From an uncultured Gemmatimonadota bacterium (lineage in GTDB: Bacteria; GCA-2686955): 31,595 bases of DNA. Of this stretch, positions 33 to 23,705 are shown piece after piece. Numbering within the stretch: position 1 is the stretch's first letter; every line of letters begins with the position of its first letter. The position numbers were made by a program, and so were the translations under genes. The notes under the pieces were generated by a model, which had not been told where the DNA came from, made no database searches, and saw only the letters and a list, made by a program, of their open reading frames with translations. The stretch spans positions 1-31,595 of the forward strand of contig CAZFNT010000001.1 of NCBI GenBank assembly GCA_964520315.1. Direction: 5' to 3'.

Positions 33-1411
33 CGTGGCCGGTCGCGTGGCGGCGACACACGCATGACGAGATCACGAATGCGATTCGCGACAAACGCCGG
101 AAGGTAGTAGAGATAGTTGCCACGAAAGAGCGCCAGATTCGCTCGCAAGAGCCACAGATCACCCCTTCTCCAAGGTCGACCGAGCATCGCCTCTCCGGCC
201 GGGATGCGGCTGAATCCGCGAGCGTCGTCCCCCGGTTCATTCTGGTGGATGCCGCTCGTGGTCGCCTCGTACCCCGCCTCGCCGATGGCGATCGCCTCGA
301 TCTTCTCGTTGAATCGGTCGTATGGCCACGCGAGGAAACGCACCTGTCGGCCGATCCCACGCGAGAGGCGCACGCGGCTTCCAACGAGCTCTTCGCGTAC
401 CCGTTCCCGCCACTCGTCGTCGGTCTCGAATCGCCCCGTCGCCCCATCATGCTCGAAGCGGTACTCCTCTACTACCTTCTCCAGCTCTTCCCGCCAGCCG
501 ATTCGCCGGAAGAAGGGCTTCCCGCCACCTTCCCGCACCCTGGCCATCAAGCGCTCTTCTATCTCTCCATCAGGCTTGAAGCAGGGTCCTTCGAGTGCGG
601 AACCGCTCTCGTAGATCGGCCTGCCATAACCGATCTCCTCCGGACGCCGTCGAAACCAGCGCGGCTTCTCTTTGGGAAAAAGGCGCCATGCGAGCCAAGG
701 AGATCGCAACCCAGGTCTATGGAAGTCAACCACTCGATCGGCGCGTGGAAGCAGATCGTGCGAGGCAGCATGGGATTCGATCTCGACGAGCCCCGACTCG
801 ACCATCTCTCGGATTTCAGGCCAACCCAAGTAGGCTCCGTGGCTCTGATCATCGGCGCTAGGCCGCTTGCGAAGAGTGCGTGTGTCTTCCACGAAATCGG
901 CGGCGACGAAAATGGTCGCTTTGGCGTTGTAGCGACGGAGCAGAGGGAAAGCGTGAAAGTAGTTGTCTAGATAACCGTCGTCGAAAGTGATGACGAGCGG
1001 TCTTCCGTGCAGTTGCTCCTCGCCCGTGAGATGCCCGCGCAGCTCAGACAGAGTGTGGGTCGTGTACCCCTCTTCTTGGAAGAGCTGCAGATGAGCGGAG
1101 AAGATCTCCGGGCGGACCGATAGACCGGGAGCCGGCACGAGGTCGAACTCGGGCGCCACGCTGTGGTACATCAAGACCGGGACCTTCACGGCGTCGGTCT
1201 GCACCATGACCGCACGGGTAACCCGATCGAGCAAGAGCGTTGCGAATGCACCGAGGCCGAGCGCGATCCACCAAGAGATGTCTCCCATCCACGCGCCCAC
1301 CAGGCACGAGAGCACGAAGAGCGCCCACACCGTTCCGATGCCTGAGTACTGCAACCACTTGAGCTGCCGCATGTGCTGGCGGCTGGGCCGGGGGGATCTC
1401 TGAGGCGTCAC
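29..1411 (-). CDS. Polysaccharide deacetylase (NodB/CE4 family) with N-terminal membrane segments
   Basis: Motifs VPVLMYH, VITFDDGY, ESHAASH and LAWPY are present, with a hydrophobic N-terminus. The start is either GTG 1411 or ATG 1372. Confidence 0.85.
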   Translation of the reverse strand: MTPQRSPRPSRQHMRQLKWLQYSGIGTVWALFVLSCLVGAWMGDISWWIALGLGAFATLLLDRVTRAVMVQTDAVKVPVLMYHSVAPEFDLVPAPGLSVRPEIFSAHLQLFQEEGYTTHTLSELRGHLTGEEQLHGRPLVITFDDGYLDNYFHAFPLLRRYNAKATIFVAADFVEDTRTLRKRPSADDQSHGAYLGWPEIREMVESGLVEIESHAASHDLLPRADRVVDFHRPGLRSPWLAWRLFPKEKPRWFRRRPEEIGYGRPIYESGSALEGPCFKPDGEIEERLMARVREGGGKPFFRRIGWREELEKVVEEYRFEHDGATGRFETDDEWRERVREELVGSRVRLSRGIGRQVRFLAWPYDRFNEKIEAIAIGEAGYEATTSGIHQNEPGDDARGFSRIPAGEAMLGRPWRRGDLWLLRANLALFRGNYLYYLPAFVANRIRDLVMRVSPPRDRPR

Positions 1412-1420
1412 CGGCTCGTT

Positions 1421-2131
1421 CTAGTACGCCGAGCGTCGCCGAAGGACGGCCGGAATCGTGGCGGCCACGATCCGGAGGTCGGTCCCGAGATCGCGGATAG
1501 CGATATAGCGCAGATCGTGTGCAACCCTCGCGTCGAATCCCTCCTCGCGATCAGGGGCGACCTGCCATGCCCCGGTGACCCCGGGCGGAACTCGTAGCCG
1601 CGCCCGCTGCCACGGCGCGTAGCTGCTGGCGGGGAATGAAGTGGGTCGCGGGCCGACGACCTTCATGTCGCCCCTGAGCACATTGACGAAGTTCGGAAGC
1701 TCATCGATGGCGAAGCGCCGGAGAACCCCTCCGACGCGAGTGATGCGCGGATCGCCCGGCACCTTGAAATCGGGCCAGGCCACAAGGCTCAGATGCGCGA
1801 GCGCCGTCTTCGCGCTCTCCGCCTCAGGGACCATCGTTCTGAACTTCCACATCTTGAAACGCCGACCACCCAGGCCGGTTCTCCACTGCCGGAAGATGAT
1901 CGGTGCACTCGGGGTCTCGATCTTGATCGCTACCGCGATGGCCAACAGAAGAGGCGCGCAAGCGATCAGGACCGCCGCGGCGAAGATTCGGTTCGGCCAC
2001 AGCGATCGGCCGTCCAGGCGATGGGACGGAGAATTCCACCCGCGCGCGACCGACACCACCCGCGGACCGTCGCCGATCTCTTCGGTGAGGGGATGTCGAG
2101 TCTCGTCCGAGCGCAGAACCGAGAATTGCAT
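1421..2131 (-). CDS. Bacterial sugar transferase (polyprenyl-phosphate sugar phosphotransferase, WcaJ/WbaP C-terminal-domain type)
   Basis: Motifs FKMWKFRTM, DPRITRVG, IDELPNFVNVLRGDM.VVGPRP and PGVTGAWQV. The ATG at 2131 is preceded by AGGA. Confidence 0.9.
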   Translation of the reverse strand: MQFSVLRSDETRHPLTEEIGDGPRVVSVARGWNSPSHRLDGRSLWPNRIFAAAVLIACAPLLLAIAVAIKIETPSAPIIFRQWRTGLGGRRFKMWKFRTMVPEAESAKTALAHLSLVAWPDFKVPGDPRITRVGGVLRRFAIDELPNFVNVLRGDMKVVGPRPTSFPASSYAPWQRARLRVPPGVTGAWQVAPDREEGFDARVAHDLRYIAIRDLGTDLRIVAATIPAVLRRRSAY

Positions 2132-2155
2132 GCCCAATCCTAACGATGTCCGAGG

Positions 2156-3241
2156 CTATCCGCACCTCCGCTCGAACTCTCGCATGAAAGCGACCAACGC
2201 CTCGACCCCTGAGCGCGGCATCGCATTGTAGATCGACGCCCGAATTCCGCCCACCGATCGATGGCCCTTGAGGTTGGTCATGCCCTCGGCGGATGATTCG
2301 GCGATGAAGCGCCCCTCCAGCTCTTCGGTCGGCAGACGGAAGGGGATGTTCATCAGCGAGCGGCTCCCTTTCTCCACGGTTCCCCTGTAGAAAGCCCCCC
2401 GGTCGAGGATGTCGTAGACGAGGCGGGCCTTCTCTTCGTTGGCCCGGTGCATCGGCTCCAGTCCGCCCTGACTCGCCACCCAGCGGGCAACGAGGCCCAC
2501 TATGTAGATCGCCCAGCAGGCCGGAGTGTTGTAGAGCGACCTCTTCTCCGCATGGGTGCTGTACCGCAACATCGACCCGATCTCTTTTGGGGCTCTGTCC
2601 AGCAGGTCCTTCCTTATGATCACCAGCGACACTCCCGCCGGGCCCAAGTTCTTCTGCGCCCCGGCGTAGATCAATCCGAATCGGGTCATATCGATCGGTT
2701 TCGACAAGATGTCCGATGACACGTCGGCTACCAGCGGAACCGAGCCGGTTTCCGGGATGTAGCTCCACCCGGTCCCATAAATAGTGTTGTTGGTCGTGAT
2801 GTGGACGTAGTCTGCCGATGCGTCGAAATCGAGCTCGTCTTGGCGAGGGATCCTGACGTAGTCTTCCTCCCTGGAGGTGCCCGAGACACGAATTTCTCCA
2901 ATCTTGCGGGCTTCCGCGATCGCCTTCGTCGACCAAGCGCCGGTATCGACATAGTCGGCCCTGCGCGCTGGGAGCATCAGATTCATCGGCACCATCGAGA
3001 ACTGGAGGCTAGCGCCCCCCTGCAGGAAAAGAACGTCGTGATCGTCTCCCGCTCCCAGCAGCCGCCGAAGTGTTGCGACGGTTCCCCTGTGAATCTCGTC
3101 GTAGGCCGGTGAACGATGGCTCATTTCCATCACACTCATTCCCGTTCCTCGGTAGTCAACGAGATCTCGCTGGGCCTCCTCGAGAACGGGGAGTGGCAAG
3201 GTTGCCGGGCCGGCGCTGAAATTGATGGCTCGTTTTGTCAT
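2156..3241 (-). CDS. serC: Phosphoserine aminotransferase
   Basis: Motifs NFSAGPA, MEMSHRS, QGGASLQF, GAQKNLGPAG (PLP lysine), YNTP and GHRSVGGIRASIYNAM. The ATG at 3241 has a GGAG RBS. Confidence 0.95.
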   Translation of the reverse strand: MTKRAINFSAGPATLPLPVLEEAQRDLVDYRGTGMSVMEMSHRSPAYDEIHRGTVATLRRLLGAGDDHDVLFLQGGASLQFSMVPMNLMLPARRADYVDTGAWSTKAIAEARKIGEIRVSGTSREEDYVRIPRQDELDFDASADYVHITTNNTIYGTGWSYIPETGSVPLVADVSSDILSKPIDMTRFGLIYAGAQKNLGPAGVSLVIIRKDLLDRAPKEIGSMLRYSTHAEKRSLYNTPACWAIYIVGLVARWVASQGGLEPMHRANEEKARLVYDILDRGAFYRGTVEKGSRSLMNIPFRLPTEELEGRFIAESSAEGMTNLKGHRSVGGIRASIYNAMPRSGVEALVAFMREFERRCG

Positions 3242-3260
3242 TGCTTGCTTCTCCAGTCGC

Positions 3261-4469
3261 TCAGTGGTCGAGCGTGTTGACATCGGCCGCGAGCACATGC
3301 TCATTCGCACCGATCTCACTCAAGGTCTCGGCTCCGGGGTCCCGATCGAGCTCGATACGCGCGACCGCCGACTCGCCCCCCAAGAAGACGACGTTTTCCA
3401 TCTGCTGAACATTGATCCGTGCGGCGCGGAGGCGATCTAGCACACCGGCCAGAACGCCGACTCGATCGCGATGACGAACCACGATCAAGTGTGAAGCCGC
3501 GCTATGGCTCGCCAGGTTCACGCAGTTGGGAACGTCGCTATCTTCCATCATGGCCCGCACGATCCGCACCGCCTCGGCGGCGACAGCGTCCTGGGCCTGA
3601 GTCGTGGACGCCCCAATGTGGTGGCTCCCCTGCACGCCGGAGAGACGAAAGAGAGAAGAGTCGATCGCGCCGGACTTGGCGGACGGCTCTCCCTCGAAGA
3701 CGTCGAGCGCGACTCGCAGGCGCCCCGACCGAAGATGACCTTCCAGCGCGCGCTGATCCAGAAGCTCGGCGCGCGCCGTGTTGATGACGAGGGCTCCTGG
3801 TGAGAGCGCGCCCAGAATCCTCTCATCGATCAGGCCGCGCGTCTCGTCGTTCAGTGCGAGATGGATGCTCATTACGTCGCAGCGCCTGGCGACCTCTTCG
3901 GGCGAATCCGCCCGCTCCACCCCGCACTTCTCAGCTCTCTCCGGCGTCAGGGACCGACTCCAGGCCACGACCTTCATTCCGAAAGCTTTGGCGCGAGGGA
4001 TCATCTCGCTGCCGATATTGCCGAGTCCGACAAGGCCGAGGGTCTTGCCTTTGATCCCCGCGGCCTTCGCGAACTCCTTCTTGTTCCAGCGCCCTTCGCG
4101 GAGCTCTAGCGCACCATCGACCAATCGCCGATCGATCGACAGCAGGTGTGCGAAGGCGAGCTCGGCGACCGCGGCCGCGTTTTTCCCGGGGCAGTTCGCC
4201 ACGTAGATCCCTCGGGCGGAGGCAGCGGCGACATCGATGGTGTTGAATCCCGCGCCCGCGCGGACGATCAGACTGAGCTTCGACGCTCCGTCCAAATGAG
4301 CCTCCTCCACGCGCGTGCTGCGCACGATGAGCACGTCGGGGTCCTCGCCCGCCAACGCTTCCTTCAGAGGATCACCGCTGAGCTCCGGATCGCAGGTTAC
4401 GTCGCAGCCGAGCGAGCGTAGCGCCTCGAGTCCGGTCTCGGGAAACTTGTCCGCCAAAAGGATCCTCAT
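3261..4469 (-). CDS. serA: D-3-phosphoglycerate dehydrogenase with C-terminal ACT domain
   Basis: Motifs VRSTRV, RAGAG.NTID, GLVGLGNIG, INTAR, ALDVF and HIGAST, followed by an ACT-like tail (HRDRVGVLAGV). It lies adjacent to serC. Confidence 0.9.
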   Translation of the reverse strand: MRILLADKFPETGLEALRSLGCDVTCDPELSGDPLKEALAGEDPDVLIVRSTRVEEAHLDGASKLSLIVRAGAGFNTIDVAAASARGIYVANCPGKNAAAVAELAFAHLLSIDRRLVDGALELREGRWNKKEFAKAAGIKGKTLGLVGLGNIGSEMIPRAKAFGMKVVAWSRSLTPERAEKCGVERADSPEEVARRCDVMSIHLALNDETRGLIDERILGALSPGALVINTARAELLDQRALEGHLRSGRLRVALDVFEGEPSAKSGAIDSSLFRLSGVQGSHHIGASTTQAQDAVAAEAVRIVRAMMEDSDVPNCVNLASHSAASHLIVVRHRDRVGVLAGVLDRLRAARINVQQMENVVFLGGESAVARIELDRDPGAETLSEIGANEHVLAADVNTLDH

Positions 4470-4508
4470 GTTCGTCCTTCCAGGCCGTCGCGGCCGGGGG
4501 GTTGCATC

Positions 4509-5726
4509 TCAGAAAGGGTGGACGATCAAGCCCGATCGGAGCTTGGGCTCGAACCAAGTCGATTTCGGGGGAAGGACCCTGCCCGCGTCGGCGACCGCCA
4601 TCAGTTGTTCAACGCTGAGGGGATGGAGCGAGAATGCTATCCCCGACCCACGACGGTCCACTCTTCTTTGAAGCTCGGTCGTGCCTCTGATCCCTCCCAC
4701 GAAGTCGATCCGGTCTGATGTTCGAGGGTCGCAGATGTCGAGTAGCGGTCCCAACACGGTGGATTGAAGGATCGCGGCATCGAGTGAGTCCACCGCATCG
4801 GGGTCCATCAACGCGGACTCCGGTGCCCGCAGACCGTACCAACGACCCTCCAAATAGACGGAGAAGCACCCCCGGCGGGGCGGGATGGGTTCGGCGCCTT
4901 CAGCGATCTCGAACACAGCCGCGATCTTCGTTAGGAGTTCGCCGGGAGTGTGCTTGGCCAGATCGTGGACGACGCGATTGTAGGCCAGGATTCGGAGCTG
5001 TTCGGCCGGGAAGAGAACGGCGAGGAATCGGTCGCACTCGCGATCGCTCCCATCCGCACTGTCGACCCCGCGAAGGCGACTCGCGGAGGCCGCCCGATGG
5101 TGGCCGTCGGCGACATAGAGGGAGGGAACCAGATCGAATGCCCGCTCGAAAGGCTCGGCATCGACGACGCGCCAGACCGTGTGGCCGATGCGGTCGGGTG
5201 CCACGAAGTCATAGATCGGCTCGGTGGACTCGATCACATCTTTCACCAGGCGATCGATAGCATGCTCACCGCGGTATGTGAGGAATACCGGCCCGGCGTG
5301 CGCGCTCAGAGAGAGCAGGTGCCGAGTGCGATCGTTCTCTTTCTCCGGCCGTGTCGTCTCATGTTTCTTGATCGTGTTGTTGTCGTACTCGTCGACCGAG
5401 CAACAGCCGACGACTCCGACTTGGCTGTGCGAGCCCATCTCCTGACGATAGACATAGAGTGCACGTTCCTCGTCTTGAACCAGTGCTCCCGCGGCGACCA
5501 GCCGATCCAGGCTCGTGCGCGCTTGCGCGTATACCGATTCGTCGTACGGATCCGTTCCCTCCGGGAGACATATCTCGGGGCGAACGACGTGAAGGAAGCT
5601 CAGCTCGTTGCCGGCGGCCAGGGCGCGGGCCTCCCCTGTATCGACGACATCGTACGGAACGCTCGCCACGGCGGCCGCGTGCTCGGGATCGGGGCGAAGG
5701 GCTGAGAGGGCGCGTAGCGTGGCCAT
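4509..5726 (-). CDS. DUF1015 family protein
   Basis: Motifs SVPYDVV, KKHE.TRPEKE.DR, YVADGHHRAASA and PPKSTWFEPKLRSGL. The ATG at 5726 has an AGGAG RBS, and this family is commonly found beside serA/serC. Confidence 0.9.
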   Translation of the reverse strand: MATLRALSALRPDPEHAAAVASVPYDVVDTGEARALAAGNELSFLHVVRPEICLPEGTDPYDESVYAQARTSLDRLVAAGALVQDEERALYVYRQEMGSHSQVGVVGCCSVDEYDNNTIKKHETTRPEKENDRTRHLLSLSAHAGPVFLTYRGEHAIDRLVKDVIESTEPIYDFVAPDRIGHTVWRVVDAEPFERAFDLVPSLYVADGHHRAASASRLRGVDSADGSDRECDRFLAVLFPAEQLRILAYNRVVHDLAKHTPGELLTKIAAVFEIAEGAEPIPPRRGCFSVYLEGRWYGLRAPESALMDPDAVDSLDAAILQSTVLGPLLDICDPRTSDRIDFVGGIRGTTELQRRVDRRGSGIAFSLHPLSVEQLMAVADAGRVLPPKSTWFEPKLRSGLIVHPF

Positions 5727-5813
5727 GAGTGAATACTCCTGTCGTCGCGACAAAGTGGGCTGGAGGATGGTCTTTGAGGATCGCATCTCCCAGTCGGACT
5801 CAAGTCGACCGTA

Positions 5814-5852
5814 CACAACAAAGGGCCCGCGAAGAAACAACTTCGCGAGCCC
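5814..5852 (-). terminator. Probable intrinsic terminator after the lipoprotein gene
   Basis: On the minus strand it reads GGGCTCGCGAAG-ttgttt-CTTCGCGGGCCC (12 bp stem with one G-U pair), followed by TTGTTGTGT, about 20 nt after the stop at 5874. Confidence 0.65.
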
Positions 5853-5873
5853 ATTGCTCCGAACTACTACGAA

Positions 5874-6683
5874 TTACGGCTCGACGTGGTAGGGCATCCC
5901 CCAAGCCGCCGCGGAGTACGGCGCCGTTTCGTCGGTGATCGCTTCGTGATCGAAGAGATCGACGTATGTGAAGTAGAGCCCTGCTTCGTCTGGCGCGTTG
6001 TAGACCTTTCGCACCTCGGTCGCGTTGATCGGATCGAGCAGTTTCTGTGAGAGCGGTTTCACGTCGGCGGTGAGCTGGTGGATCACGCCGATCACGTCGG
6101 AGTCGTTCGCCTGGACCGTGACCGTGATCTCCTCACCGGGTGCAAAGGTCAGGATCTCGACATCGTGGAGCTCCGCCAGATCGTCGAAGACAACCGTGTT
6201 CTCGCTCCAACTCACGGTCACTTGCACGATCTCGGTCTCCCCGTCTTCCGATCTGCCTTCGTAAACCGACACCTGATCCAAGTTCCATTTGCCGCCGGCA
6301 TTCTCTCTGGCCACGACATTGCGCGACGCGACGTCGTTCGGAATCCGCTTGCTGTAAGTCGATCCATCCTCGAGGACGACTTCGAGCTCTCCCGAAGCAC
6401 TCCGCAACACCTCGGCATCGGCGCGATCTCCCTCTCTTTGAATGGAGTAGTCGGTAGACACATCGTCGTAGCTTCGCCCGAACGACGCGATGCCCTCGGT
6501 GGAGATCGCCAGATCCGGGCTCTGGTCCGCATCCCAGCTCAGCGCTATGCCGGACGCCCCATCGTCGCTGATGGCGTCGCGGATCCGGTCGTCGATGGAG
6601 TCGCCCAGCAGGCCTTCTCCGCATCCTCCAAGAGTCAGGCCCGCAGCCAAGGTCGTGCTCAGTGCTCCGATAGCTCGTTTCAT
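5874..6683 (-). CDS. Hypothetical lipoprotein
   Basis: The ATG at 6683 has an AGAGGAAG RBS. The N-terminus MKRAIGALSTTLAAGLTLGGC has a basic start, hydrophobic core and lipobox Cys. The mature part is acidic and I do not recognise a family. Confidence 0.7.
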   Translation of the reverse strand: MKRAIGALSTTLAAGLTLGGCGEGLLGDSIDDRIRDAISDDGASGIALSWDADQSPDLAISTEGIASFGRSYDDVSTDYSIQREGDRADAEVLRSASGELEVVLEDGSTYSKRIPNDVASRNVVARENAGGKWNLDQVSVYEGRSEDGETEIVQVTVSWSENTVVFDDLAELHDVEILTFAPGEEITVTVQANDSDVIGVIHQLTADVKPLSQKLLDPINATEVRKVYNAPDEAGLYFTYVDLFDHEAITDETAPYSAAAWGMPYHVEP

Positions 6684-6983
6684 GTTCTTCCTCTTTTCGA
6701 TCATGCGGCTCGCGCAATCGTCGATCGCCGGCTGATTGGCGATGACGGGAACCGCGCATTGGTGTGATGCCGACATAGGCCGACCAAGGGCCCACGCAAT
6801 GCAGGGAGCGTGCCAACGCGGTACTCGTTGATACGCAACAGATAGAGGCCCGCATCCTTGCCCTTCTGCCCTTGCAGGGGGACGCCGGCGTCCACTTATT
6901 GGGTTCGCCCTCTCCCCGATCGACCGAGCACCGACTAAAGAAGGGGTTGACTTGCGGAGCGGCTCTGCTTAGCACGCGGATCA

Positions 6984-7010
6984 TTGATCGTAATCATTGA
7001 TCCTGATCAA
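6984..7010. promoter_or_regulatory. Two tandem FNR/Anr-type (TTGAT-N4-ATCAA) boxes
   Basis: TTGAT-cgta-ATCAT at 6984-6997 (one mismatch) and a perfect TTGAT-cctg-ATCAA at 6997-7010, 58 nt upstream of the oxidase subunit II start. Confidence 0.65.
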
Positions 7011-7067
7011 TCACCTCGGCTCGCCGGTGATCAGCAAATGGCTCGAAACGAGCCACCGGAAGGTCAG

Positions 7068-7555
7068 ATGCTCGACTTCTTGCCTGAGAACATCTCCAGC
7101 TTCGGCGGAGAGATCGATGGAGTGATCAGCTACATCTGGCGGATCATTCTCGCCTGGCTCGTCGCCACCGAGGCGGTCTTGGTCTATCTGTGGTCCGCTA
7201 TCGCCGGCGTGGGGGGAAGCGCGCGGCACGGCTTCCGGCGAATACGTGGCGAGCCAACGCGTGGGTGCTGGTTCCCGCCCTGCTTGTAACGATCTGTGAC
7301 ATCGGCATCGAGGCCCGGAGCGCTTCAGTCTGGGATGAAGTGAAGCTGGAGCTACCGGAACCCGATCTGCTCATACGGGTGACCGGCCGGCAGTTTGTCT
7401 GGACGCTCACCTATGCCGGCCCCGATGGCGAGCTCGATACGGGAGACGACATCGAGGCGATCACCGATCTTCACGTTCCGCGGGATCGTGTTGTTCGCTT
7501 TCAGCTCGAGTCCACCGACGGGCAGTACGAAATCGCTTGCGCGGAGCTCTGTGGT
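7068..7555 (+). pseudogene. coxB: Cytochrome c oxidase subunit II pseudogene (frameshifted, internally deleted, 3'-truncated)
   Basis: MLDFLPENISSFGGEID...LVYL shifts frame near 7190 into VRYRRR...VTGRQFVW..TY.GPDG..DT.DD...LHVP..RVVRFQLESTD. It then jumps directly to GQYEIACAELCG, so the VxHSF CuA segment and the downstream H/M ligands are missing. Confidence 0.85.
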
Positions 7556-7985
7556 GCACTTCGCCGGTACTTTCATCTTCTTCAATTTGACCTTCATTCC
7601 GCAATTCGCGCTGGGCATGATGGGGCACCATAGGCGGATCGCCAACCCCCAGACTTTCGAGTTTCTGCGGGACGGACAGGGCCTGCAAGTTCTCTCGACT
7701 ATAGGTGTCATCGGTTTGCTGGTTTCGCAGGTGCCATTCGTATACAACTTCTTTGTCAGCATGGCCCGAGGAAAGCCGGCCGGTAGGAATCCCTGGCAGG
7801 CGACAACGTTGGAATGGGCGACGGCATCTCCGCCGCCCCATGGAAACTTCGACGAACCGCAGATCGCCTACCGCGGCCCTTACGTCTACAGTCCCCCAGG
7901 CGATGGACCCGATTGGGTTCCGCAATTCGAGCCCCCCGTAGAAGCGCCGGAGTCCGGCGCCGCACCCTTCGAATCAGTGAGCTGA
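7554..7985 (+). pseudogene. coxA: 3' fragment of cytochrome c oxidase subunit I
   Basis: Reads VHFAGTFIFFNLTFIPQFALGMMGHHRRIA...GRNPWQATTLEWATASPPPHGNF, i.e. the last helices and C-tail only. It has no start codon of its own and none of the heme/CuB histidine motifs. Confidence 0.85.
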
Positions 7986-7988
7986 AAC

Positions 7989-8207
7989 GTGTCCACTCCA
8001 GCGATCATCGAGAGACCGGCCGTTGCCGCCACGGACTTGCCGAACTCGCGTTTGGCGATCTGGTGGTTCCTCGCTTCCGAAGTGGCCATCTTCGGGGGAC
8101 TCATCGTCACCTACGTGCTTGTGCGCATACACCATCCGGAATGGGGGGAGTACGCCTCGCACATGATCAATGCGGCGGGCGCGATAAACACGATGGTGTT
8201 GACATGA
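7989..8207 (+). pseudogene. coxC: 5' fragment of cytochrome c oxidase subunit III
   Basis: Reads RLAIWWFLASEVAIFGGLIVTY...AINTMVLT and stops after 72 codons at the junction with an unrelated fragment. Confidence 0.8.
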
Positions 8208-8506
8208 TCATCGTATCGGCGATTCCGGCCACGCCGGCTCTCGACATTCTCGCCCCCGATCTCAGCGGTACACATCGCGAAAACGTATTCGCGATGGAAT
8301 CGGTCCCTGCCCGCCTGATCCGCACTTTTCAGTCGATCGACAAACCGATAGTCGGAGCAGTTGATTCGGGACGCCTCTACGATCCGAGCGTGCTCATGCT
8401 TCAGCGCAACGGCATCCCCGTCTACCGAAAAATCGACCGTGCCAGTCGGGCATTGGCCGCTCTATGGTGGGTCCGCGGTTCGCGAGAATCGGGGCTGAAA
8501 AGCTGA
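8192..8506 (+). pseudogene. 3' fragment of an acyl-CoA ligase (ADP-forming, CoA-binding) family gene
   Basis: DGVDMIIVSAIPATPAL...DKPIVGAVDSGRLYDP...NGIPVYRKIDRASRAL resembles the C-terminal ligase subdomain (GIPVY/F...RA..AL). No 5' part is present. Confidence 0.55.
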
Positions 8507-10284
8507 GAACGTCGCTCGACAGGCAGCGTGATCTTGCGAAAGTTCGCCAGTATATATCCGTCCGGATCCGGCTCGAGCGCCGTAACCGTGCCGTCTACGT
8601 CGAAGAGGAATTGTTGCACCGTAGCACTGTCAACGACCGTCGTGAACAGGTCCGGAGAGCCGGAACGATCGAGGCGCAGAGTGATCGGCATGCGGTAAGG
8701 ATTGACTCCGTTCTGCGTCTGCCTGATCTCCAACTCCACCCGCGTCGAGTCGCCCGGCAAAGCCGTCAGATCGACGATATAGTCGTAGCTGGGTCGTCCT
8801 GGCTCGTAGAGCCACGGATCGAAGAACCAGTCCAGATTCTCGCCAGCGACCGTCGCAGACAGTTCGGTGAACTGCGCGGTGACGGCGGAATCGTGAGCAT
8901 AGGTCTCGCCCCAGCTCCGCAAGATCTCGACAGTCGTCTCTCGCCCCACGATCCCTCGCAGCATATGTAGCACCCACGCCCCCTTGTCATAAACCGTGCT
9001 GTTGAAAGTGTAGTCAGGTGCGTAGATCGAGCCGGCGAACGAAGGCCGCGCCGTTGCCTGCATATAGTCCAAGTAGGCGCTTTCACCCTGCAAACCTTCG
9101 ACCCAGATTGCCTCGCCCCAGGTCGCGAACCCCTCGTTCAGCCAGATATCGGCCCAAGTACCACAGGTAACGAGATCGCCCCACCACTGATGCGCGAGCT
9201 CATGCGCGACGATCCAGTCGAAGTAATGCGTGCCCGTGTAGAGGCCCGATCCGTAACTCGTCAGCGTCGCGTGCTCCATTGCTCCGCCCCATGGAAACTC
9301 GGCATGACCGTATTTCTCTTGCGCGTAGGGATAGTCGCCCCACTCCGCCTCGAAGATCGCCAACATGCCCGGAATCACTGTCACGTCCTCGGTCGCTTCC
9401 GCGACGGTTTCCGGCCAAGTGTAGTAGGTCAGCGGCAAGGTCCCACCGGCCAAAAGCTCGTAGGAATCTTCGATCAGCACGAAATCGGTAGCCGTGATCG
9501 CCACGAGATATGAAGGGATCTGGTAGCCGATCGACCAACTGTGCGTGGCGCTTCCGTCGCCGTTGTCGATGATCGATTGCAGCAGACCGTTCGATCCGAC
9601 CGTGAAAAGAGTATCCATAGTGATAGAGATATCGGCGGTCGCCTTGTCGTCGGGACGGTCTTTGCATGGCCACCATGCTCGCGCCTCTTCGGCCTCTGAA
9701 AGTGTCCAGACCACGGGGGGGGTGCGATCCCAGTAGATGCCGAATCCGCCGAATCCTTCGGGGATCGGTGTTCCGTGGTAATGAACAGCGATCGTGGCAA
9801 CCTCGCCAGCGTGAAGGGGCGGGTCGAGGGCAAGGGCGAGGCGATCGCCCGCATGATCGAAGGGTTGAGCACCAAAACCGGTTCTGTCCACCCCGCTCAC
9901 GCTCATGTTGTCGGCGAGATCGAGCTCGATCTCATAAACCGTGGGGCCGACCGGCTCGAAGCTCAGCTCGACCGTGCCATCGATGACTCGATCCGCATTC
10001 CAAGGATCAATGTCGATGTCGAGGACATAATGCAGCACGTCGTAGCTCTCCTGCGAAGGATCGGGCGGCGGGCTCAGGATCGGAAGCTCGGGACGAGGGG
10101 CGAGCGGCACGGATGCGGCGCGGCGAGCATGCGCGGCGCGGACAACGCGGTGGTTGTGGCGGATACGGCGTGCCCACTCGGTGTCGGCGGGGCGACGCGG
10201 CGCGTTCCCATCGACGTAGGCCGCGGCGGAAGGGGTCGCGATCACCGAACCGAGCAGGAGCGCGAAAAAGCTAGGAGAACGCAC
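8422..10284 (-). CDS. Secreted M1 family zinc aminopeptidase (C-terminus possibly truncated)
   Basis: Motifs GGAMEH, HELAHQWWGD-X-WLNEGFA (HEXXH-X18-E) and YDKGAWVLHMLR. A signal-peptide-like start at GTG 10284 follows GGAG. Confidence 0.9.
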   Translation of the reverse strand: MRSPSFFALLLGSVIATPSAAAYVDGNAPRRPADTEWARRIRHNHRVVRAAHARRAASVPLAPRPELPILSPPPDPSQESYDVLHYVLDIDIDPWNADRVIDGTVELSFEPVGPTVYEIELDLADNMSVSGVDRTGFGAQPFDHAGDRLALALDPPLHAGEVATIAVHYHGTPIPEGFGGFGIYWDRTPPVVWTLSEAEEARAWWPCKDRPDDKATADISITMDTLFTVGSNGLLQSIIDNGDGSATHSWSIGYQIPSYLVAITATDFVLIEDSYELLAGGTLPLTYYTWPETVAEATEDVTVIPGMLAIFEAEWGDYPYAQEKYGHAEFPWGGAMEHATLTSYGSGLYTGTHYFDWIVAHELAHQWWGDLVTCGTWADIWLNEGFATWGEAIWVEGLQGESAYLDYMQATARPSFAGSIYAPDYTFNSTVYDKGAWVLHMLRGIVGRETTVEILRSWGETYAHDSAVTAQFTELSATVAGENLDWFFDPWLYEPGRPSYDYIVDLTALPGDSTRVELEIRQTQNGVNPYRMPITLRLDRSGSPDLFTTVVDSATVQQFLFDVDGTVTALEPDPDGYILANFRKITLPVERRSQLFSPDSREPRTHHRAANARLARSIFR

Positions 10285-10787
10285 GTGTGACTCCGGGGCG
10301 TGGGGGATCGAGGCCGACGGCACCAGAGTTACATCGTTTCGATCGGGGCTCAAGAGGGCTCCGGCGCCCGGACACAGAAATGAAACCACCGGGGACAGCA
10401 CACTGGCAAGCGGACCTCCGTCTTTCAGAGCCAGGCAAACCCCGCCGCTCCGCTCGGGCCGAACTTTCCGCACTTTTTGCGCTAGAAGCGACCGTGCTGG
10501 GCGCGTCTCACATCAGCTGTACGCGAAGACTAACCAGATATGAAATCCGGCACTGGCGTAGGAGTGACCGCGCGCGCCCGGATCAGGTAGGCCGCGACCG
10601 CCCCCAGCACCAGGACCGAGCCTCGCTCAATGGGGAGATTCACCGGGCTTGGTCCAAGTACGACTGGTAGGTCTCCCGGAACGTCTTTCGCAGCGATTTC
10701 GAGCAATCGGTGGACCAAAACGGTCTTGCCGGTGCGCGCTTCCCGTCGAGGGGGTGGACCGGGTCGACGCGTGGGTGCGCTCCCTTT

Positions 10788-10816
10788 TTGACAACCCGCT
10801 CGGGCGCTGCTATATG
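10788..10816 (+). promoter_or_regulatory. Sigma70-type promoter for the phoH operon
   Basis: TTGACA (10788-10793), a 17 bp spacer, then TATATG (10811-10816) preceded by TGn (extended -10). Confidence 0.7.
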
Positions 10817-10948
10817 TACCCGTATAGAATAGAAGGCGGATCTGCAGAGCCGCAAGAGGGGGGGCATTGAAGAATGAGAATCGACGAGAACGACATGGGA
10901 TCCAAGAGAACTCCAGAAGAGAGCCAACCCTGACCCCGGACTACTTCA

Positions 10949-11995
10949 GTGGGTAGGAACCAGAACGCGCCGGAGCTGAAAGACGCCGCCGACTCGACGC
11001 CGCGAATCGCGCGCATACGGTTGGACTCGGTGCCGCCGATCGAGCTGCTCGGTAGCCGCGACATCTACCTGAAGCAAATCGACGCGGAGTTCGAGGCCAA
11101 TATCTCAGCGCGGGGCAACGAGATACTGGTTCAGGGCGAGGGTGACGAGGTGGCCGAGGTCCACGCCGTGGTAGAGCACCTCGTTGAGCTGATCTCGGCC
11201 GGAACTCCCCTTTCGCGCCAGCGGGTGCGCTATGCGATCGAGATGATCCGCGACCGCCGGACGCCCGAGCTTTCGAGGCTGGTCGACGGGTCGGAACCCC
11301 TGCGCCCCACGGCGGGCACGCGCACCGTCGTCCCAAAGACGGTCACGCAGCAGGCCTACGTCGAGGCGATCCGCTCCCATGATGTCTCGCTGGCTATTGG
11401 CCCAGCCGGCACGGGAAAGACCTATTTGGCAGTGGCTTGCGCGGTCGAGGCCTTGACGCGCGGCGAGGTGGAGCGGATCATTCTGACCCGGCCGGCGGTC
11501 GAGGCCGGTGAGTCGCTGGGCTACCTGCCGGGCGATCTTCGAGACAAGGTCGATCCCTATCTGCGCCCTCTCTACGATGCGCTGGGCGACATGATGCAGC
11601 CCGATCGGGTCAATCGTCTTATGGAGAACGGAACGATCGAGGTGGTTCCCCTGGCCTATATGAGGGGGCGGACCTTGAATCGCTGCTTCATCATCCTCGA
11701 TGAGGGACAGAACGCCACGCGGTTGCAGATCAAGATGTTCCTGACGCGCCTGGGCAATCGGGCGAAGGCGGTGCTCACCGGCGACGTGACTCAGGTCGAC
11801 CTCGACGATCGAAGCAAGTCGGGCTTGATTCACGCGCGCAAGATCCTCTCCGATATACCAGGTATAGCCGTAGTGGAGTTCGGTGAATCCGATGTGGTTC
11901 GCCACGCGCTGGTGCGCAAGATCCTCGTGGCCTACGATCGTGATGGACAAAGCGAGAACGCCGAGTTCTCGGGGCTGACCGAGTTCGATGACTGA
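10949..11995 (+). CDS. phoH: PhoH family ATPase
   Basis: Motifs [48 protein letters not shown] and GDVTQVDL. Confidence 0.95.
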
Positions 11996-12025
11996 GAGAT
12001 CTGGACCGGGGATGAGATTCACCGC

Positions 12026-14305
12026 ATGACAAGCCGCTCGAAACCGCCAAGACCCCGGCGGCGGGCGAGAGGTGCCGTGCGCGCCGATTCGCCCGTCGCA
12101 ACGCGGACTGTTTGGGCGTCCTTTGGAATCGCCCTTGTCGTCGTTGCCCTGTTGGTGGCGGCCCATCCTCACACCGGAGCCGTTCAGGTACACCCGCTCT
12201 TCGCCGCGGGCGAGGTTTCCGATCGAGAAGTGATCGCTACCCTGGACTTCGTTGTCGAACGGGACGCTCAGACAATGGCCGCCGAGCGCCGGGCCGCGAG
12301 ATCGGCCGCGCCGGTTGTTCTGGTGCACCGAGAGAGCGTCGAGATCGAACGTCGCGCTGTTCTCGATGCCTTCTACGACGATCTCGACGGTGGGCAATCC
12401 GATGCTTTGGAGCTCTCTCGCAGGTGGAGCTTCGGGCTCTCGGGCGAGGAGCTCGCGAGATTCTCCGGCCCGTCTTCCAGCGCCAAACGCCTGCGCCGGC
12501 AAGTGGATCGACTCGTCGAGAGGCTCTTCGATCATGGCGTTGCCGATGCGCATTTCGATCGGGCCGATCGCCCGGCGGTGATTCAGCGCGCCGGCAGAGA
12601 GATGGCGGTCGATGGGGCCGAGGTGATCCGCGCGGATCGGTGGGTCAACGAGGTCGCCAATTGGGTCGCTCAGCTGACATCCGATCCGGATGAGCAGCAC
12701 CTGGTCGCCACGTTGGTCAGTGCGATCGTCGAGCCGAATCTGATCTTGGACGAGGAGGAATCGGGTCGGCGGGCTCGCGCGGCGGAGGCAGAGATCTCGA
12801 GGACCATAGCCGGGGTGCGGCGGGGCGAGAGGATCGTGCGGGCTCACGAAGTCGTGACATCTTTGCAGGCAAAGAAGCTGATCGCCTTTCGCAACGCGAC
12901 CACGGGACCATCGGCGTCGGCGGCACTACTGGACCGACTGCATGGGATCTTGGTTCACGCCGGGGTGTTCGCTCTGCTCATCTCATGCGTCGGGGCGTAT
13001 GTTTGGCGCTATCGGCCCGATATCGCGGAAGATCTGAAGAAGGAGATCCTGGTAGGAATACTGATTCTCATCGCTGCGCTGCCATCCGCCACCGTAGTCG
13101 CCGCGGGATTCCTCGAAGATGTGGCGGCACCCGTGATGATCGGCGCGGTGTTGGCGACTATTCTCTTGGATGCGCACGTGGCGATTGTGCTGGCGGTGGT
13201 CACGGTTTTCGTGGTCGCGTCGTACAGCGCGGGCTCGGCGCTTTTCTCTCTGACGGCGCTCATCGTCTCTCTCGCGACGATATTCGCTCTCGAGAATATT
13301 CGTAAGCGATCCTCTTACTATCGATCCATACTCGCCGTTATCGGTGTCGGCGTCGTGACGGTCGTTTTCGCGGATCAGGTGTACGGAGTGGCTCTGGAGC
13401 GGACTTTCGAGCGTGTCATCGGCCAGAGCGGGGCGATTCTGATCTCTTTCATGGTCTCGCTCTTCCTGCTGCCGGCGTTCGAACGCTTCTTCGGGCTGAC
13501 AACCGATTTGACGCTGAATGAATACTCCGATCTCAACCACCCCCTTCTGAGACAGCTCGCTGTTCGCGCGCCGGGCTCGTTCCATCACTCGATGATGATG
13601 GCCAATCTGGCCGAGGCGGCCGCGACGAGCATCGACGCGAACCCGCTGCTTGCCCGAGTCGGGGCTTACTATCACGATGTCGGAAAGATGTCGAAATCGG
13701 AGTACTTCATCGAGAATCAGTTTGGATCTGTGAACAAACACGATCAGCTCGCCCCCTCGATGTCGGTCTTGGTGATACAGAACCACATCAAAGAGGGCAT
13801 CGAGATGGCGAAGCAGAATAGGCTGCCACAGGCGATTATCGACTTCATCCCGGAGCACCACGGAACGAGTGTCATCTCCTATTTTTACAACAAGGCGGTT
13901 TCCGCGACATCTCTCGGTGAGGTTCGCATGGACGACTACCGTTATCCTGGCCCCAAGCCCCACAGCCGCGAAACCGCGATCGTGATGATCGCCGACACGG
14001 TCGAGGCGGCGTCTCGCTCTCTCGACGACCCGACTCCGCTGAAGCTGGGGCAGATGGTCCAGAAAAGCATCCGCGACAAGTTCTTGAATGGGCAGCTCGA
14101 CAACTCCGGTCTCACACTCGATGACTTGCGGCGGATCGGTGAGGCCTTCTCACCGATTCTCAACGGCGCATTCCATCAGAGAGTCGCCTACCCCGAGACC
14201 GAAGAGCAGAGGATGAAGGAACCGAGCCGCGCGCCTTCGAAGCGTGGCCAGGACCGCCGCGGCGGCGAGGACGACTCCGATATGGCGGAGCGAGGCGTGT
14301 CTTGA
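12026..14305 (+). CDS. 7TM-HD family phosphohydrolase (PgpH/YqfF-like)
   Basis: An N-terminal TM and extracytoplasmic region, a multi-TM block, then an HD domain (APGSFHHS, AYYHDVGK, EHHGT, YPGPKP, IADTVEAASR). It sits in the conserved phoH-HD-ybeY context. Confidence 0.9.
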   Translation: MTSRSKPPRPRRRARGAVRADSPVATRTVWASFGIALVVVALLVAAHPHTGAVQVHPLFAAGEVSDREVIATLDFVVERDAQTMAAERRAARSAAPVVLVHRESVEIERRAVLDAFYDDLDGGQSDALELSRRWSFGLSGEELARFSGPSSSAKRLRRQVDRLVERLFDHGVADAHFDRADRPAVIQRAGREMAVDGAEVIRADRWVNEVANWVAQLTSDPDEQHLVATLVSAIVEPNLILDEEESGRRARAAEAEISRTIAGVRRGERIVRAHEVVTSLQAKKLIAFRNATTGPSASAALLDRLHGILVHAGVFALLISCVGAYVWRYRPDIAEDLKKEILVGILILIAALPSATVVAAGFLEDVAAPVMIGAVLATILLDAHVAIVLAVVTVFVVASYSAGSALFSLTALIVSLATIFALENIRKRSSYYRSILAVIGVGVVTVVFADQVYGVALERTFERVIGQSGAILISFMVSLFLLPAFERFFGLTTDLTLNEYSDLNHPLLRQLAVRAPGSFHHSMMMANLAEAAATSIDANPLLARVGAYYHDVGKMSKSEYFIENQFGSVNKHDQLAPSMSVLVIQNHIKEGIEMAKQNRLPQAIIDFIPEHHGTSVISYFYNKAVSATSLGEVRMDDYRYPGPKPHSRETAIVMIADTVEAASRSLDDPTPLKLGQMVQKSIRDKFLNGQLDNSGLTLDDLRRIGEAFSPILNGAFHQRVAYPETEEQRMKEPSRAPSKRGQDRRGGEDDSDMAERGVS

Positions 14306-14754
14306 TGGCGATCCACTTGGCCTCAGATGCAAGTGTAAGCGGCGATGAGATCGACACGCGAGATGTGGAGCGCGCTCTGGATCTCGTGATTTCGGGTGAG
14401 AAGGGGGATTGCGAGTTCACGATCGATGTCGTTCTCGGAAGCGACGACCTGCTCACCCGCCTCAACGACACCTATCGCGGAAAGAAAGGCACGACAGACG
14501 TTCTTTCATTCCCCTTGATGAACGGAGCGCGTGCCCCGGACGATACGTTGCTGGGTGAAATATACGTATCGTTGCACAGGGCCGCCGAGCAGGCTCGAAA
14601 TGCCGGCACATCGCTCGATGCGGAGCTCGCGCGCCTGGTGATTCACGGCGCGCTGCATTTGCTCGGCTACGACCATATGCGAAGCGAAGATGCTCTGATC
14701 ATGGAGCCGCTGGAGAGCCGCTACCGGGACGTTTGGAGGAACGGGGCACAGTGA
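14305..14754 (+). CDS. ybeY: rRNA maturation RNase YbeY
   Basis: Motifs YRGKKGTTDVLSFP, LGEIYVS and HGALHLLGYDH (H-X3-H-X5-H). The ATG overlaps the upstream TGA. Confidence 0.93.
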   Translation: MAIHLASDASVSGDEIDTRDVERALDLVISGEKGDCEFTIDVVLGSDDLLTRLNDTYRGKKGTTDVLSFPLMNGARAPDDTLLGEIYVSLHRAAEQARNAGTSLDAELARLVIHGALHLLGYDHMRSEDALIMEPLESRYRDVWRNGAQ

Positions 14755-16055
14755 CGGAGATTGCTTCACTTCTGTTCAGCGCATGCGCGGTTGTCGTTCT
14801 GCTCGGGCTGAGCGCGATCTTCAGTGGATCCGAGACAGCGATCATCTCTTTGTCGTCTTCCGATGTGGATCGTCTTCCCGACGGGGAAGGAGCGCGCGGT
14901 AGGGCGGTAGCGGAGTTGCGACGCGACCCCACCCGCTTTCTGGTGGGCGTGCTTCTGGGCAACACACTGGTCAACGTGGCGGCCTCGTCGGTTGCCGTTG
15001 GGCTTGCTTTGGCGGCCTGTGAGCTGGGCGATTTGCCTCTGTGGGTCGGTGTCGTGACTACGGTCGTCATGATGCCGCTTGTGTTGCTAGTAGTCGGTGA
15101 AGTCACCCCGAAATCGATGGCGTTCTCGAACGCGCGCCGCTTCGCCCTGAAGACCGCCTTCTTTGTTCACGCCTTTTTCCGGATCTGCTCGCCGCTGATC
15201 GGGGTACTCCATCGACTGACCAGGCTCGGGAGGCTGATCGGCGGCCCCAGCGCGATGTCGTCGCCGGAAGAGATCCGCACGCTTCTCAAGGTCAGCGACG
15301 AAGAAGGGCTCATCGATTCCGACGAGCGTGAGCTGATCGACTCGGCGGTCGAGCTTTCGGAGACTCTCACTCGAGAGATCATGGTTCCCCGCCCCGACAT
15401 GAAGGCGCTCGATGTGAGCGCTTCCCACGCCGAAGCGCTCGACATGATAGACGACTTTCGCCTCTCTCGCCTGCCGGTATATCGAGATAGCGTTGATCAG
15501 ATCATCGGTGTATTGCACGCCAAGGACTTGCTTCAGTTCATTCACAAGGAAGAGGAGTTCGTGCTCGAGGGGGCGATCCGTCGAGCCCATTTTGTGCCGG
15601 AGGCGATGAGCATCATCGACCTGCTGCAAGCCATGAAGGGCTGGAGCTCGCAGATGGCCGTCGTCGTGGATGAGTACGGAGGTACATCGGGGTTGGTCAC
15701 GCTCGAAGACATAGTGGAGGAGCTCGTAGGCGAGATCTGGGACGAACACGACGAAGAAGAGACGCTGCACGAGCGACTCGGCGACGGAACGATCATTGCC
15801 GATGGGCGGATGAGCGTGAACGATCTCTCGGAGCTGGTGGGTGTCGACCTCGAGGGAGAAACCTACGACACTGTCGGAGGGTTGATTCTCGATCGGATCG
15901 GGGACATTCCCAAAGCCGGGCGAATTCTGAACGAGCGAGGCATCACACTCTCGGTAGAGAAGGTGGTGCGGAACCGGATCAGGCGGGTACGAGTCACAGT
16001 GCCCGAGAGCGGCGACGTCGTCGATTCACGGAAGACCGAAGGGGGTGCACCGTGA
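14751..16055 (+). CDS. CNNM/DUF21-CBS-CorC_HlyC family transporter (hemolysin family), copy 1
   Basis: Motifs FSGSETA, LLGNTLVN, GEVTPK, REIMVPR, SRLPVY, VVDEYGGTSGLVTLEDIVEELVGEI and a CorC tail. The GTG at 14751 overlaps the ybeY stop. Confidence 0.9.
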   Translation: MTEIASLLFSACAVVVLLGLSAIFSGSETAIISLSSSDVDRLPDGEGARGRAVAELRRDPTRFLVGVLLGNTLVNVAASSVAVGLALAACELGDLPLWVGVVTTVVMMPLVLLVVGEVTPKSMAFSNARRFALKTAFFVHAFFRICSPLIGVLHRLTRLGRLIGGPSAMSSPEEIRTLLKVSDEEGLIDSDERELIDSAVELSETLTREIMVPRPDMKALDVSASHAEALDMIDDFRLSRLPVYRDSVDQIIGVLHAKDLLQFIHKEEEFVLEGAIRRAHFVPEAMSIIDLLQAMKGWSSQMAVVVDEYGGTSGLVTLEDIVEELVGEIWDEHDEEETLHERLGDGTIIADGRMSVNDLSELVGVDLEGETYDTVGGLILDRIGDIPKAGRILNERGITLSVEKVVRNRIRRVRVTVPESGDVVDSRKTEGGAP

Positions 16056-17305: not shown

Positions 17306-17564
17306 GCGAAGCCCTCAACGGAAATCGTTCCGGATGCTCGATGCACTCCAAACTCAGATCGATGTCGAGATCGGGCCAGTAGTAGTGGCCCTTCGTCGGC
17401 TCTTCGACGTTGAGGATTCTCCCGACCGGTTCCTCTTTGAACCGCGGGAAGTCGCTGTACGGTACAAAGAGCTCCTTCTCGGACGTGAGCAGCCAGATGC
17501 TATGCGCGGAGATATTCGTGACCTCAAGATCCGAAATGCTGCCGCCACGCGCGGAGGATCTCAT
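17253..17564 (-). CDS. DUF2442 family protein (putative antitoxin); reads through into the antisense strand of the upstream CNNM gene
   Basis: Motifs EVTNIS.H.IWLL, ELFVPYSDFP.F, HYYWPDLDIDLS and IEHPERFPL. Confidence 0.75.
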   Translation of the reverse strand: MRSSARGGSISDLEVTNISAHSIWLLTSEKELFVPYSDFPRFKEEPVGRILNVEEPTKGHYYWPDLDIDLSLECIEHPERFPLRASLNPADRPSATEPPDPKP

Positions 17565-17706
17565 CTTCGTGTTCCTCTATCAGAACTTCGCCTCTCCGTC
17601 GCTCCGTCGCTCCGTCGCTGCAATGGACGTGAATATGTAGTCTCGCCTCTTCTCGGGAGAAGAAGAAGAACCGGAAGCCTCTTTTTCGAAACACTGTTGG
17701 ACTCAT
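17524..17706 (-). pseudogene. DUF4160 family protein (putative toxin), disrupted by a repeat expansion and an internal deletion
   Basis: Reads MSPTVFRKRGFRFFFFSREEARLHIHVHCSDG...LIEEHEDEILRAWRQHFGS after a strong RBS. The conserved GEAKF(W) segment is present only out of frame and the following helix is missing. Confidence 0.75.
17594..17619. repeat. 8-bp tandem repeat (CTCCGTCG x3 plus CT)
   Basis: Read directly: ctccgtcg at 17594, 17602 and 17610, inside the DUF4160 ORF. Confidence 0.9.
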
Positions 17707-17818
17707 CTTCTCCTCTTCCTCCAAAGTCTATCACGCATTCGCGATGGCGAGAGGGAGCGCCGCAGAGCGTCGGCACCGAACACCACCACGGCGAACATCC
17801 AGCGTAAGCTCTCACCCC

Positions 17819-22013: not shown

Positions 22014-22469
22014 CCGAGCAAGAGGGCGAATTCGGTCGTGAAGTAGATGCCAAAACGATCGTCGATGAACACGATCAACTTCTGTGCATTTTCCCGCGCA
22101 AGCTTGCGCAAGTAATCACCTTGGGTGATGGATCTCCCCGCGTCCTCTTCTCGCTGGTCGTGTTCGAGTCGGAAGTCCGAGCCGTGGCACATACGCCCAG
22201 GCGAGTTGGAATCCACTGAAGTACTCGGTGATCGTGCTCGGGCATTCTCTGGGCCGCACCTTCTTCTTCCGGCCCGTTCGACCCGCGCCCTTGGCGCTCT
22301 CTCCACACCCGACGAGTGTGCCGTCGATCAGAACACCGATCTCATCCGGGATCTGTGGGCCATGGCGTCGTCCGCACATGGCGAGGTGGGGGTTGGGGCG
22401 ACGGAGACGGCGGTCCGTGCGGCAGCGGTTGCAGCAATGACACTCCAGAGAGGCCGGCCCTATCGCGCG

Positions 22470-23243: not shown

Positions 23244-23271
23244 GTCTACTCTCGCGCTCGGGTCTGCTGCT

Positions 23272-23699: not shown

Positions 23700-23705
23700 G
23701 GCCCT

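Follow-up and report, generated by a model that had tools for sequence, protein, structure and literature searches.

A recent deletion scar at the aa3-like cytochrome c oxidase locus of a marine Gemmatimonadota genome

How does a bacterial chromosome come to carry the remains of four genes fused into 1.45 kb, and what did its owner give up with the missing parts? The locus that raises this question lies at positions 7068-8506 of contig CAZFNT010000001.1 (GenBank assembly GCA_964520315.1) from an uncultured Gemmatimonadota bacterium. A stretch of 31,595 nt of this contig was analysed on its forward strand (hereafter 'the window'); it is contig C1 of a genome, here called G000, that comprises 4.68 Mb on 828 contigs and is 84.9% complete. 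An initial annotation, made from the letters alone, had read the locus as a collapsed cytochrome c oxidase operon in which pieces of coxB, coxA, coxC and an acyl-CoA ligase are joined. Having compared it with two related metagenome-assembled genomes (MAGs) and with public metagenome assemblies, we conclude that 7068-8506 is very probably the non-functional deletion scar of an aa3-like cox locus. The relatives are the same-genus MAG Gemmatimonadetes bacterium ARS67 (G001; NYZA01000120.1), whose locus lies at 5678-16321 of its contig C120, and the same-family, more distant MAG uncultured Gemmatimonadota bacterium binchicken_co65_262 (G003; CAZBBK010000037.1).

Reading of positions 6700-9000 together with the listing of open reading frames (ORFs) revealed five abutting pieces on the plus strand; the short island of coxB is given a line of its own:

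7068-7190, plus strand: coxB stub, codons 1-41 (MLDFLPEN...VLVYL) in the original frame, 98% amino acid identity to residues 6-49 of G001 CoxB
7193-7519, plus strand: coxB middle in a shifted frame (VRYRRR...RFQLESTD), recognised by alignment to CoxB of G001 and G003
7520-7552, plus strand: coxB island of 33 nt (GQYEIACAELC), mapping to about 6247-6280 of G001 (L011) in the same order and orientation
7554-7985, plus strand: coxA stub (VHFAGTF...), last 143 codons and stop, 86% amino acid identity to G001 CoxA 426-568
7989-8201, plus strand: coxC stub, first 71 codons, 81% amino acid identity to G001 CoxC 1-75
8204-8506, plus strand: stub of an ADP-forming (NDP-forming) acetyl/acyl-CoA synthetase, last ~100 codons and stop, 94% amino acid identity to residues 651-748 of 753 in G001

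The coxB middle encodes transmembrane helix 2 and the first half of the cupredoxin domain, and after RFQLESTD its shifted frame reads on into GQYEIACAELCG. The island contributes only the two cysteines of the CuA site, its closing glycine codon (7553-7555) falling within the homology at the junction to coxA. The coxA stub comprises helices XI-XII and the C-terminal tail, matching Pfam COX1 positions 377-434, while the coxC frame stops at a TGA at 8205-8207. An M1 peptidase gene on the minus strand (8422-10473) converges on the ligase stub and shares 85 nt with it, 3' end on 3' end, as in G001; this overlap may be what shielded that end of the ligase gene from deletion.

A Pfam scan of the five stub translations returned a single match, to COX1, at 28.7 bits and thus under the cut-off. 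Because family models need more sequence than the stubs offer, we assigned their families via the intact G001 orthologues, to which they are 69-98% identical at the amino acid level and which themselves pass the Pfam cut-offs for COX2, COX1, COX3 and NDP-forming acyl-CoA synthetases. Conversely, the intact G001 proteins recovered the stubs in G000 by tblastn (coxB 2e-69, coxA 8e-77, coxC 2e-34, acyl-CoA synthetase 3e-51), and the coxA tail is 86% identical to an open frame of 635 aa in G001 and 75% identical to the G003 counterpart. The four gene identities proposed initially hence stand, by way of the orthologues and hardly by direct family search.

What the locus once looked like can be read from G001. 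BLASTN of the window against G001:C120 yields three colinear segments at ~82% nucleotide identity:

window 1383-7518: G001:C120 1-6153
window 7553-8201: G001:C120 7667-8315
window 8195-10200: G001:C120 16010-18015

Colinearity extends to 37.8 kb in G001, with small intergenic differences only beyond the scar. Since no other large deletion relative to G001 was found across the 30-kb window, the large gaps being confined to the cox locus, the deletion cluster is specific to this locus. An intact syntenic orthologue with colinear flanks thus exists in the close relatives. The genes stand in G001 in the following order:

coxB: COX2 58.7 bits; TIGR02866 145.0 bits, below its cut-off of 147.7
coxA: COX1 449 bits; TIGR02891 592 bits, below its equivalog cut-off of 670.75
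coxC: Pfam COX3 83 bits
coxD: COX4_pro
a second COX3-like gene, followed by a c-type cytochrome and a Crp/Fnr-family regulator
ctaA: COX15-CtaA
ctaB: TIGR01473 251 bits
a DUF420 protein, between ctaB and the acyl-CoA synthetase
an ADP-forming acyl-CoA synthetase of 753 aa: ATP-grasp_5, CoA_binding_2 and Succ_CoA_lig; TIGR02717

The cox-cta gene set of G003 is that of G001. As both relatives carry it, its presence is ancestral for the family. G001 CoxB displays the CuA pattern H...CxExCx3Hx2M. In the loop after helix XI, CoxA of the window, G001 and G003 reads GHHRR instead of the GMPRR usual in A-type oxidases (window 7554-7982; G001:C120 7668-8096).

Alignment to the intact locus places four lesions in the window, with sizes given relative to G001:

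7191-7192, plus strand: net deletion of 1 nt (CTG TG at 7188-7192 where G001 has CTG CTC; the offset between the flanks shifts by 1)
7514-7520, plus strand: junction 1, ACCGACG, 93 nt (31 codons, VLHSFW...EATAD in G001) lost in frame
7553-7558, plus strand: junction 2, GGTGCA, 1386 nt lost
8195-8201, plus strand: junction 3, GGTGTTG, 7701 nt lost; the BLASTN segments overlap here

Past 7192 the original coxB frame runs to a stop at 7287-7289. Junction 1, whose left and right counterparts in G001 read GCCGATG and GCCGACG, takes out the first CuA histidine (VLHSFW). Junction 2 removed the 3' end of coxB with the CuA histidine and methionine (SHTAM) as well as coxA codons 1-425. Junction 3 is a hybrid of GGTCTTG on the coxC side and GGTGTCG on the ligase side, and with it went the 3' part of coxC, coxD, the COX3-like gene, the cytochrome c, the Crp/Fnr regulator, ctaA, ctaB, the DUF420 gene and ~650 codons of the ligase. 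In total, 9,181 nt (1 + 93 + 1386 + 7701) are missing, leaving four gene stubs in 1.45 kb. The initial annotation had put the frameshift near 7190 and the junctions near 7519, 7553-7556 and 8193-8203, had supposed that several kilobases were removed by at least three deletions, possibly at short microhomologies, and had listed the CuA and haem/CuB ligands as lost; the alignment bears this out, the third deletion (from coxD to ~650 ligase codons) being far larger than the sequence alone could indicate.

These losses strike the parts on which function depends. A complete CuA site consists of the side chains of a histidine, two cysteines, a second histidine and a methionine together with a glutamate backbone carbonyl, all in the cupredoxin domain of subunit II. 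In the window only the C-A-E-L-C pair is left, Pfam COX2 misses the stub, and the frame is interrupted by the loss at 7191-7192, which is also present in contigs of two further metagenome runs (X3 and X4, see below). Subunit I needs six histidines on helices II, VI, VII and X as ligands of haem a, haem a3 and CuB. The corresponding motifs of G001 CoxA stand at residues 73, 254, 302 and 382-393, whereas the window keeps 426-568. In sum, the CuA site is short of three of its five side-chain ligands and subunit I of all six histidines that bind haem or CuB, little of subunit III is left, and neither the two haem A synthesis genes nor the regulator remain. We also considered a programmed frameshift in coxB, but rejected this reading, the gene beyond it being destroyed in any case.

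Exact microhomology, measured on G001, amounts to 5, 3 and 3 nt at junctions 1, 2 and 3, respectively. Among 100,000 random junctions drawn from the same DNA, at least 5 nt occurred in 0.7% and at least 3 nt in 6%. Judged from these sequences, the microhomology signature would be convincing for the junctions jointly and for junction 1, and suggestive for junctions 2 and 3 singly. A deletion mediated by an insertion sequence or repeat was rejected, the dispersed repeat of this genome having no copy at the junctions. All three deletion sizes, 93, 1386 and 7701 nt, are multiples of three; as only junction 1 joins parts of one frame, this is probably a coincidence (1 in 27).

Is the scar present in nature, or only in one assembly? 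Ten public runs from six studies contain sequence words of the window, and all are marine or seawater metagenomes except for one hydrothermal-vent run with a small share. For four runs, the Logan contigs assembled from each were aligned to positions 6000-9500, a junction counting as bridged when at least 31 nt lay on either side. Run X1, which may be the source of the MAG, yields a single contig of 4169 nt across the whole interval with 0 differences, at a coverage of ~6x, and thereby spans every lesion. Run X4, another sample, yields contigs at 7070-7230, 7395-7577 and 7584-8306, each with 0 differences, which bridge every lesion but junction 2, past which they extend by 19-24 nt. Run X3, from a different study (2025), yields contigs at 6911-7539 and 8167-8455, again with 0 differences, which cross the frameshift, junction 1 (by 20 nt, below the 31-nt rule) and junction 3 (with 28 nt on the left). 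The frameshift and junctions 1 and 3 thus recur in read sets independent of X1. In none of the four runs did we find a contig that diverges from the window, or a loose end, at a junction. A 67-nt query over junction 2 had all three of its sampled words in four runs of study P1; these are too few words and were not counted as evidence. As homologies of 3-7 nt cannot mislead an assembler working at k = 31, the scar is present in environmental DNA from more than one sample and year, and an assembly artefact is unlikely. The initial annotation had named reads that do not span the junctions as grounds for refuting it, and on this point the contigs speak in its favour.

When was the locus lost? Ratios of nonsynonymous to synonymous substitution rates (dN/dS; Nei-Gojobori, window against G001) are 0.07 for the coxB 5' stub, 0.08 for the coxB middle, 0.06 for the coxA tail, 0.14 for the coxC head and 0.04-0.08 for the ligase tail. 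Six intact flanking genes range from 0.08 to 0.21, out-of-frame control ORFs from 1.3 to 2.2. Synonymous divergence (dS) of the stubs is 0.7-1.06, with the exception of the 40-codon coxB 5' stub (0.17). Polarised with G003 as outgroup over 364 columns, lineage-specific amino acid changes number 13 in the window and 7 in G001, a difference that is not significant. Since the stubs evolved like their intact neighbours, purifying selection acted on them nearly throughout the time since the species split, which makes the loss recent, as had been supposed from the well-preserved motifs. As a rough bound, neutral decay may account for at most ~0.02 substitutions per site, a few percent of the window lineage's branch if roughly half of the pooled dS (~0.8) is assigned to it. 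By these substitution patterns, the loss is very recent relative to the split of the sister species.

The control region of the former operon has apparently outlived it. Upstream of the coxB stub we find:

6947-6952, plus strand: TTGACT, a -35-like hexamer
6984-6997, plus strand: FNR/CRP-type box TTGAT-CGTA-ATCAT
6997-7010, plus strand: perfect FNR/CRP-type box TTGAT-CCTG-ATCAA, in tandem with the first

The block 6947-7010 is kept in the window, G001 and G003, and we take it to be the orphaned control region of the cox operon with putative FNR/CRP sites, a call based on the textbook consensus and backed by the Crp/Fnr gene inside the operon. That regulator gene itself went with the deleted operon.

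From these observations, the following course of events can be proposed. The ancestor carried at this site an A-type (aa3-like) oxidase locus, probably under the control of FNR/CRP boxes, with an ADP-forming acyl-CoA synthetase downstream. A 1-nt deletion and three forward deletions (93, 1386 and 7701 nt versus the relative) then removed ~9.2 kb, joined at imperfect homologies of 3-7 nt, with illegitimate recombination or replication slippage as the likely route. The scar allele is carried by the population sampled in several seawater metagenomes, and its bearers would rely on nitrate respiration and/or on a haem-copper enzyme resembling cbb3 oxidases and nitric oxide reductase (NOR).

How firmly does this account stand against its rivals? 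Fragmentation of the MAG into 828 contigs and the low coverage, ~6x in X1, could be taken as signs of mis-assembly, a binning chimera or a chimera from multiple displacement amplification, with the true operon intact. We regard this as very improbable, given that at least three samples from two studies return the frameshift and junctions 1 and 3 exactly in Logan assemblies, that homologies of 3-7 nt are far under assembler k-mers and cannot create mis-joins in the graph, that four runs lack any contig diverging at a junction, and that the MAG holds no intact fragment of the deleted genes elsewhere. A real scar might also be a strain-level polymorphism, i.e. accessory-gene variation in which cells with the intact operon coexist. 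A recent loss would suit an allele that selection has had no time to test, minor alleles are invisible in contigs, and the best match in our scan of metagenome contigs stands at 72% amino acid identity, so that fixation could not be judged from a closer relative. Still, the scar allele was assembled in every sample with the locus, in the 2021 as in the 2025 study, and no branch ends were seen, so that we hold coexistence to be quite unlikely. Even less credence, in fact next to none, is given to the idea that the fused stubs form a new functional protein, for instance from the 147-aa ORF at 7190-7633 or the 196-aa ORF at 7395-7985. Frames of 147, 196 and 230 aa are indeed open and the promoter region upstream is intact, but only junction 1 is in frame, the ORFs enter the wrong frame of the next gene beyond junctions 2 and 3, and past function fully accounts for the conservation of the stubs. 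A search for contigs encoding the chimeric ORFs 7190-7630 and 7814-8503 gave no match and is counted as uninformative, since near-identical records may be missing from its results.

With regard to the number of events, a single compound replication event is a tentative possibility that we doubt. Serial forward template switching (by slippage, or akin to fork stalling and template switching (FoSTeS) and microhomology-mediated break-induced replication (MMBIR)) would have made all three deletions by skipping 93 nt, copying 33, skipping 1386, copying 649 and skipping 7701. The retained pieces keep their original order and orientation, a 33-nt island separates junctions 1 and 2, short homology is present at all junctions, and the stubs hold no measurable neutral decay that would space the events in time. 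Yet three independent deletions in quick succession after an initial inactivating lesion, under the usual bacterial deletion bias, fit equally well, no intermediate or alternative allele was seen (the nearest metagenome relative being at 72% amino acid identity), and the 1-nt frameshift is a separate lesion regardless. Some points weigh against the deletion-scar account as a whole. Deletion sizes and microhomologies were measured on G001, an 82% identical stand-in and not the true ancestor; at junctions 2 and 3 the homology is weak when each is taken alone; junction 2 is bridged by at least 31 nt on both sides in X1 only, possibly the MAG's own source; rare variants drop out of contigs, so that an intact allele at low frequency could coexist; and with G000 84.9% complete on 828 contigs, its missing oxidase genes are 'not found' and not proven absent. 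With these points counted, we still consider the deletion scar the best explanation of 7068-8506.

What, then, is left for the bacterium to respire with? Cytochrome c oxidase has been reported in Gemmatimonadota of all environments, while marine-water Gemmatimonadota MAGs were reported without cytochrome bd (PMC10581226). In G000, at its 84.9% completeness, we found no second copy of coxA, coxB, coxC, coxD, ctaA, the Crp/Fnr gene, the DUF420 gene or the ligase, no ctaB above the cut-off, and no COX2, cytochrome bd subunit I (Cyt_bd_oxida_I) or FixO/CcoO. Cytochrome b is retained, at a contig end. The respiratory nitrate reductase NarG is split over two contig ends (C67:6-2657 and C320:4388-5314) and whole in G001 and G003, so the family appears to be nitrate-respiring. 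A search for the NosZ propeller (PF18764) gave no match in any of the control genomes and hence says nothing on NosZ.

One haem-copper protein remains. Contig C350 of G000 (L001) encodes a dihaem cytochrome c (665-1441) and a 465-aa haem-copper protein (1411-2808; PF00115, 49.7 bits) with an orthologue at G001:C93:17633-18862; in G001 it and the A-type oxidase are the only two haem-copper enzymes. The protein belongs to a deep-branching, widespread and uncharacterised clade in Acidobacteriota, Planctomycetota and Gemmatimonadota, whose members annotation pipelines label 'cbb3-type subunit I' or 'nitric oxide reductase subunit B'. A phmmer search of the PDB with the protein itself gave no match, while a profile of the clade gave weak ones to C-type oxidases and cNOR (E 1e-4 to 0.4). 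In an alignment of 18 members, the histidines H71, H262, H263, H266, H342 and H350 are invariant. At 188, the histidine of an EGH motif that could correspond to the usual CuB ligand of helix VI is not conserved, which points to an unusual active site.

With the operon, the window's species thus gave up the one canonical oxygen reductase of its genus along with the pathway to haem A, and aa3-type respiration is gone. The initial suggestion of a lineage abandoning aerobic respiration is borne out only in part: no other canonical oxidase was found in the 85%-complete MAG, but the cbb3/NOR-like haem-copper protein and cytochrome b remain. A loss of all oxygen respiration is plausible from the gene content, and any remaining oxygen respiration depends on the cbb3/NOR-like enzyme and the unassembled 15% of the genome. 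One could go further and imagine that a single template-switching event ended aa3 respiration and haem A synthesis at once, and that a free-living pelagic species has persisted for years on NarG and the cbb3/NOR-like enzyme. We think this unlikely; if true, it would provide a dated natural case of an abrupt switch from canonical aerobic respiration.

The pair of sister species offers a natural contrast that could serve to ask what marine Gemmatimonadota respire and whether O2 or NO is the substrate of the conserved cbb3/NOR-like haem-copper protein. The locus also represents a clean, well-dated example of a deletion scar and a warning to annotators that its four ORF stubs are not genes.

Elsewhere in the window, four intergenic stretches are 250-450 nt longer than in G001 (10201-10781, 17309-17796, 22014-22465 and 23226-23704). 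Positions 23537-23657 belong to a dispersed repeat, 90-140 nt long, of which other G000 contigs carry more than 80 copies at 72-87% identity, and 22014-22465 has pieces in common with several G000 contigs. The repeat looks like an element of the kind of miniature inverted-repeat transposable elements (MITE) or repetitive extragenic palindromic sequences (REP) that expanded in the window's species.

How does the locus compare with known systems? It shares with the intact locus of G001 and G003 the chromosomal position and flanks (a DUF1015 protein, a lipoprotein-like ORF and the M1 peptidase) and the FNR-type boxes upstream, and its surviving pieces are 69-98% identical at the amino acid level. 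In contrast to G001, it is short by 9,181 nt and its subunit and assembly genes are all non-intact. The ancestral genes belong to the A-type (aa3) haem-copper cytochrome c oxidases with CtaA/CtaB, exemplified by the aa3 oxidase of Paracoccus denitrificans (CoxB/CoxA/CoxC with CtaA/CtaB), whereas the window's copy falls short on every functional count and is a fossil. Genomically, this is ordinary gene loss and a known kind of fossil, not a new system, and as such it is genuine, recent and unusually legible. Mira, Ochman and Moran reportedly described deletion-biased decay of pseudogenes in bacteria in 2001. The scar resembles such decay: the loss is recent, a short and legible stub is left at the syntenic position, and the junctions fall at short homologies of the kind that arise by chance. 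It differs from the usual case in that three junctions and a frameshift fall within 1.1 kb with four genes represented, in that haem A synthesis, a regulator and an acyl-CoA synthetase were lost collaterally, and in that the lost operon apparently encoded the genome's only canonical oxygen reductase.

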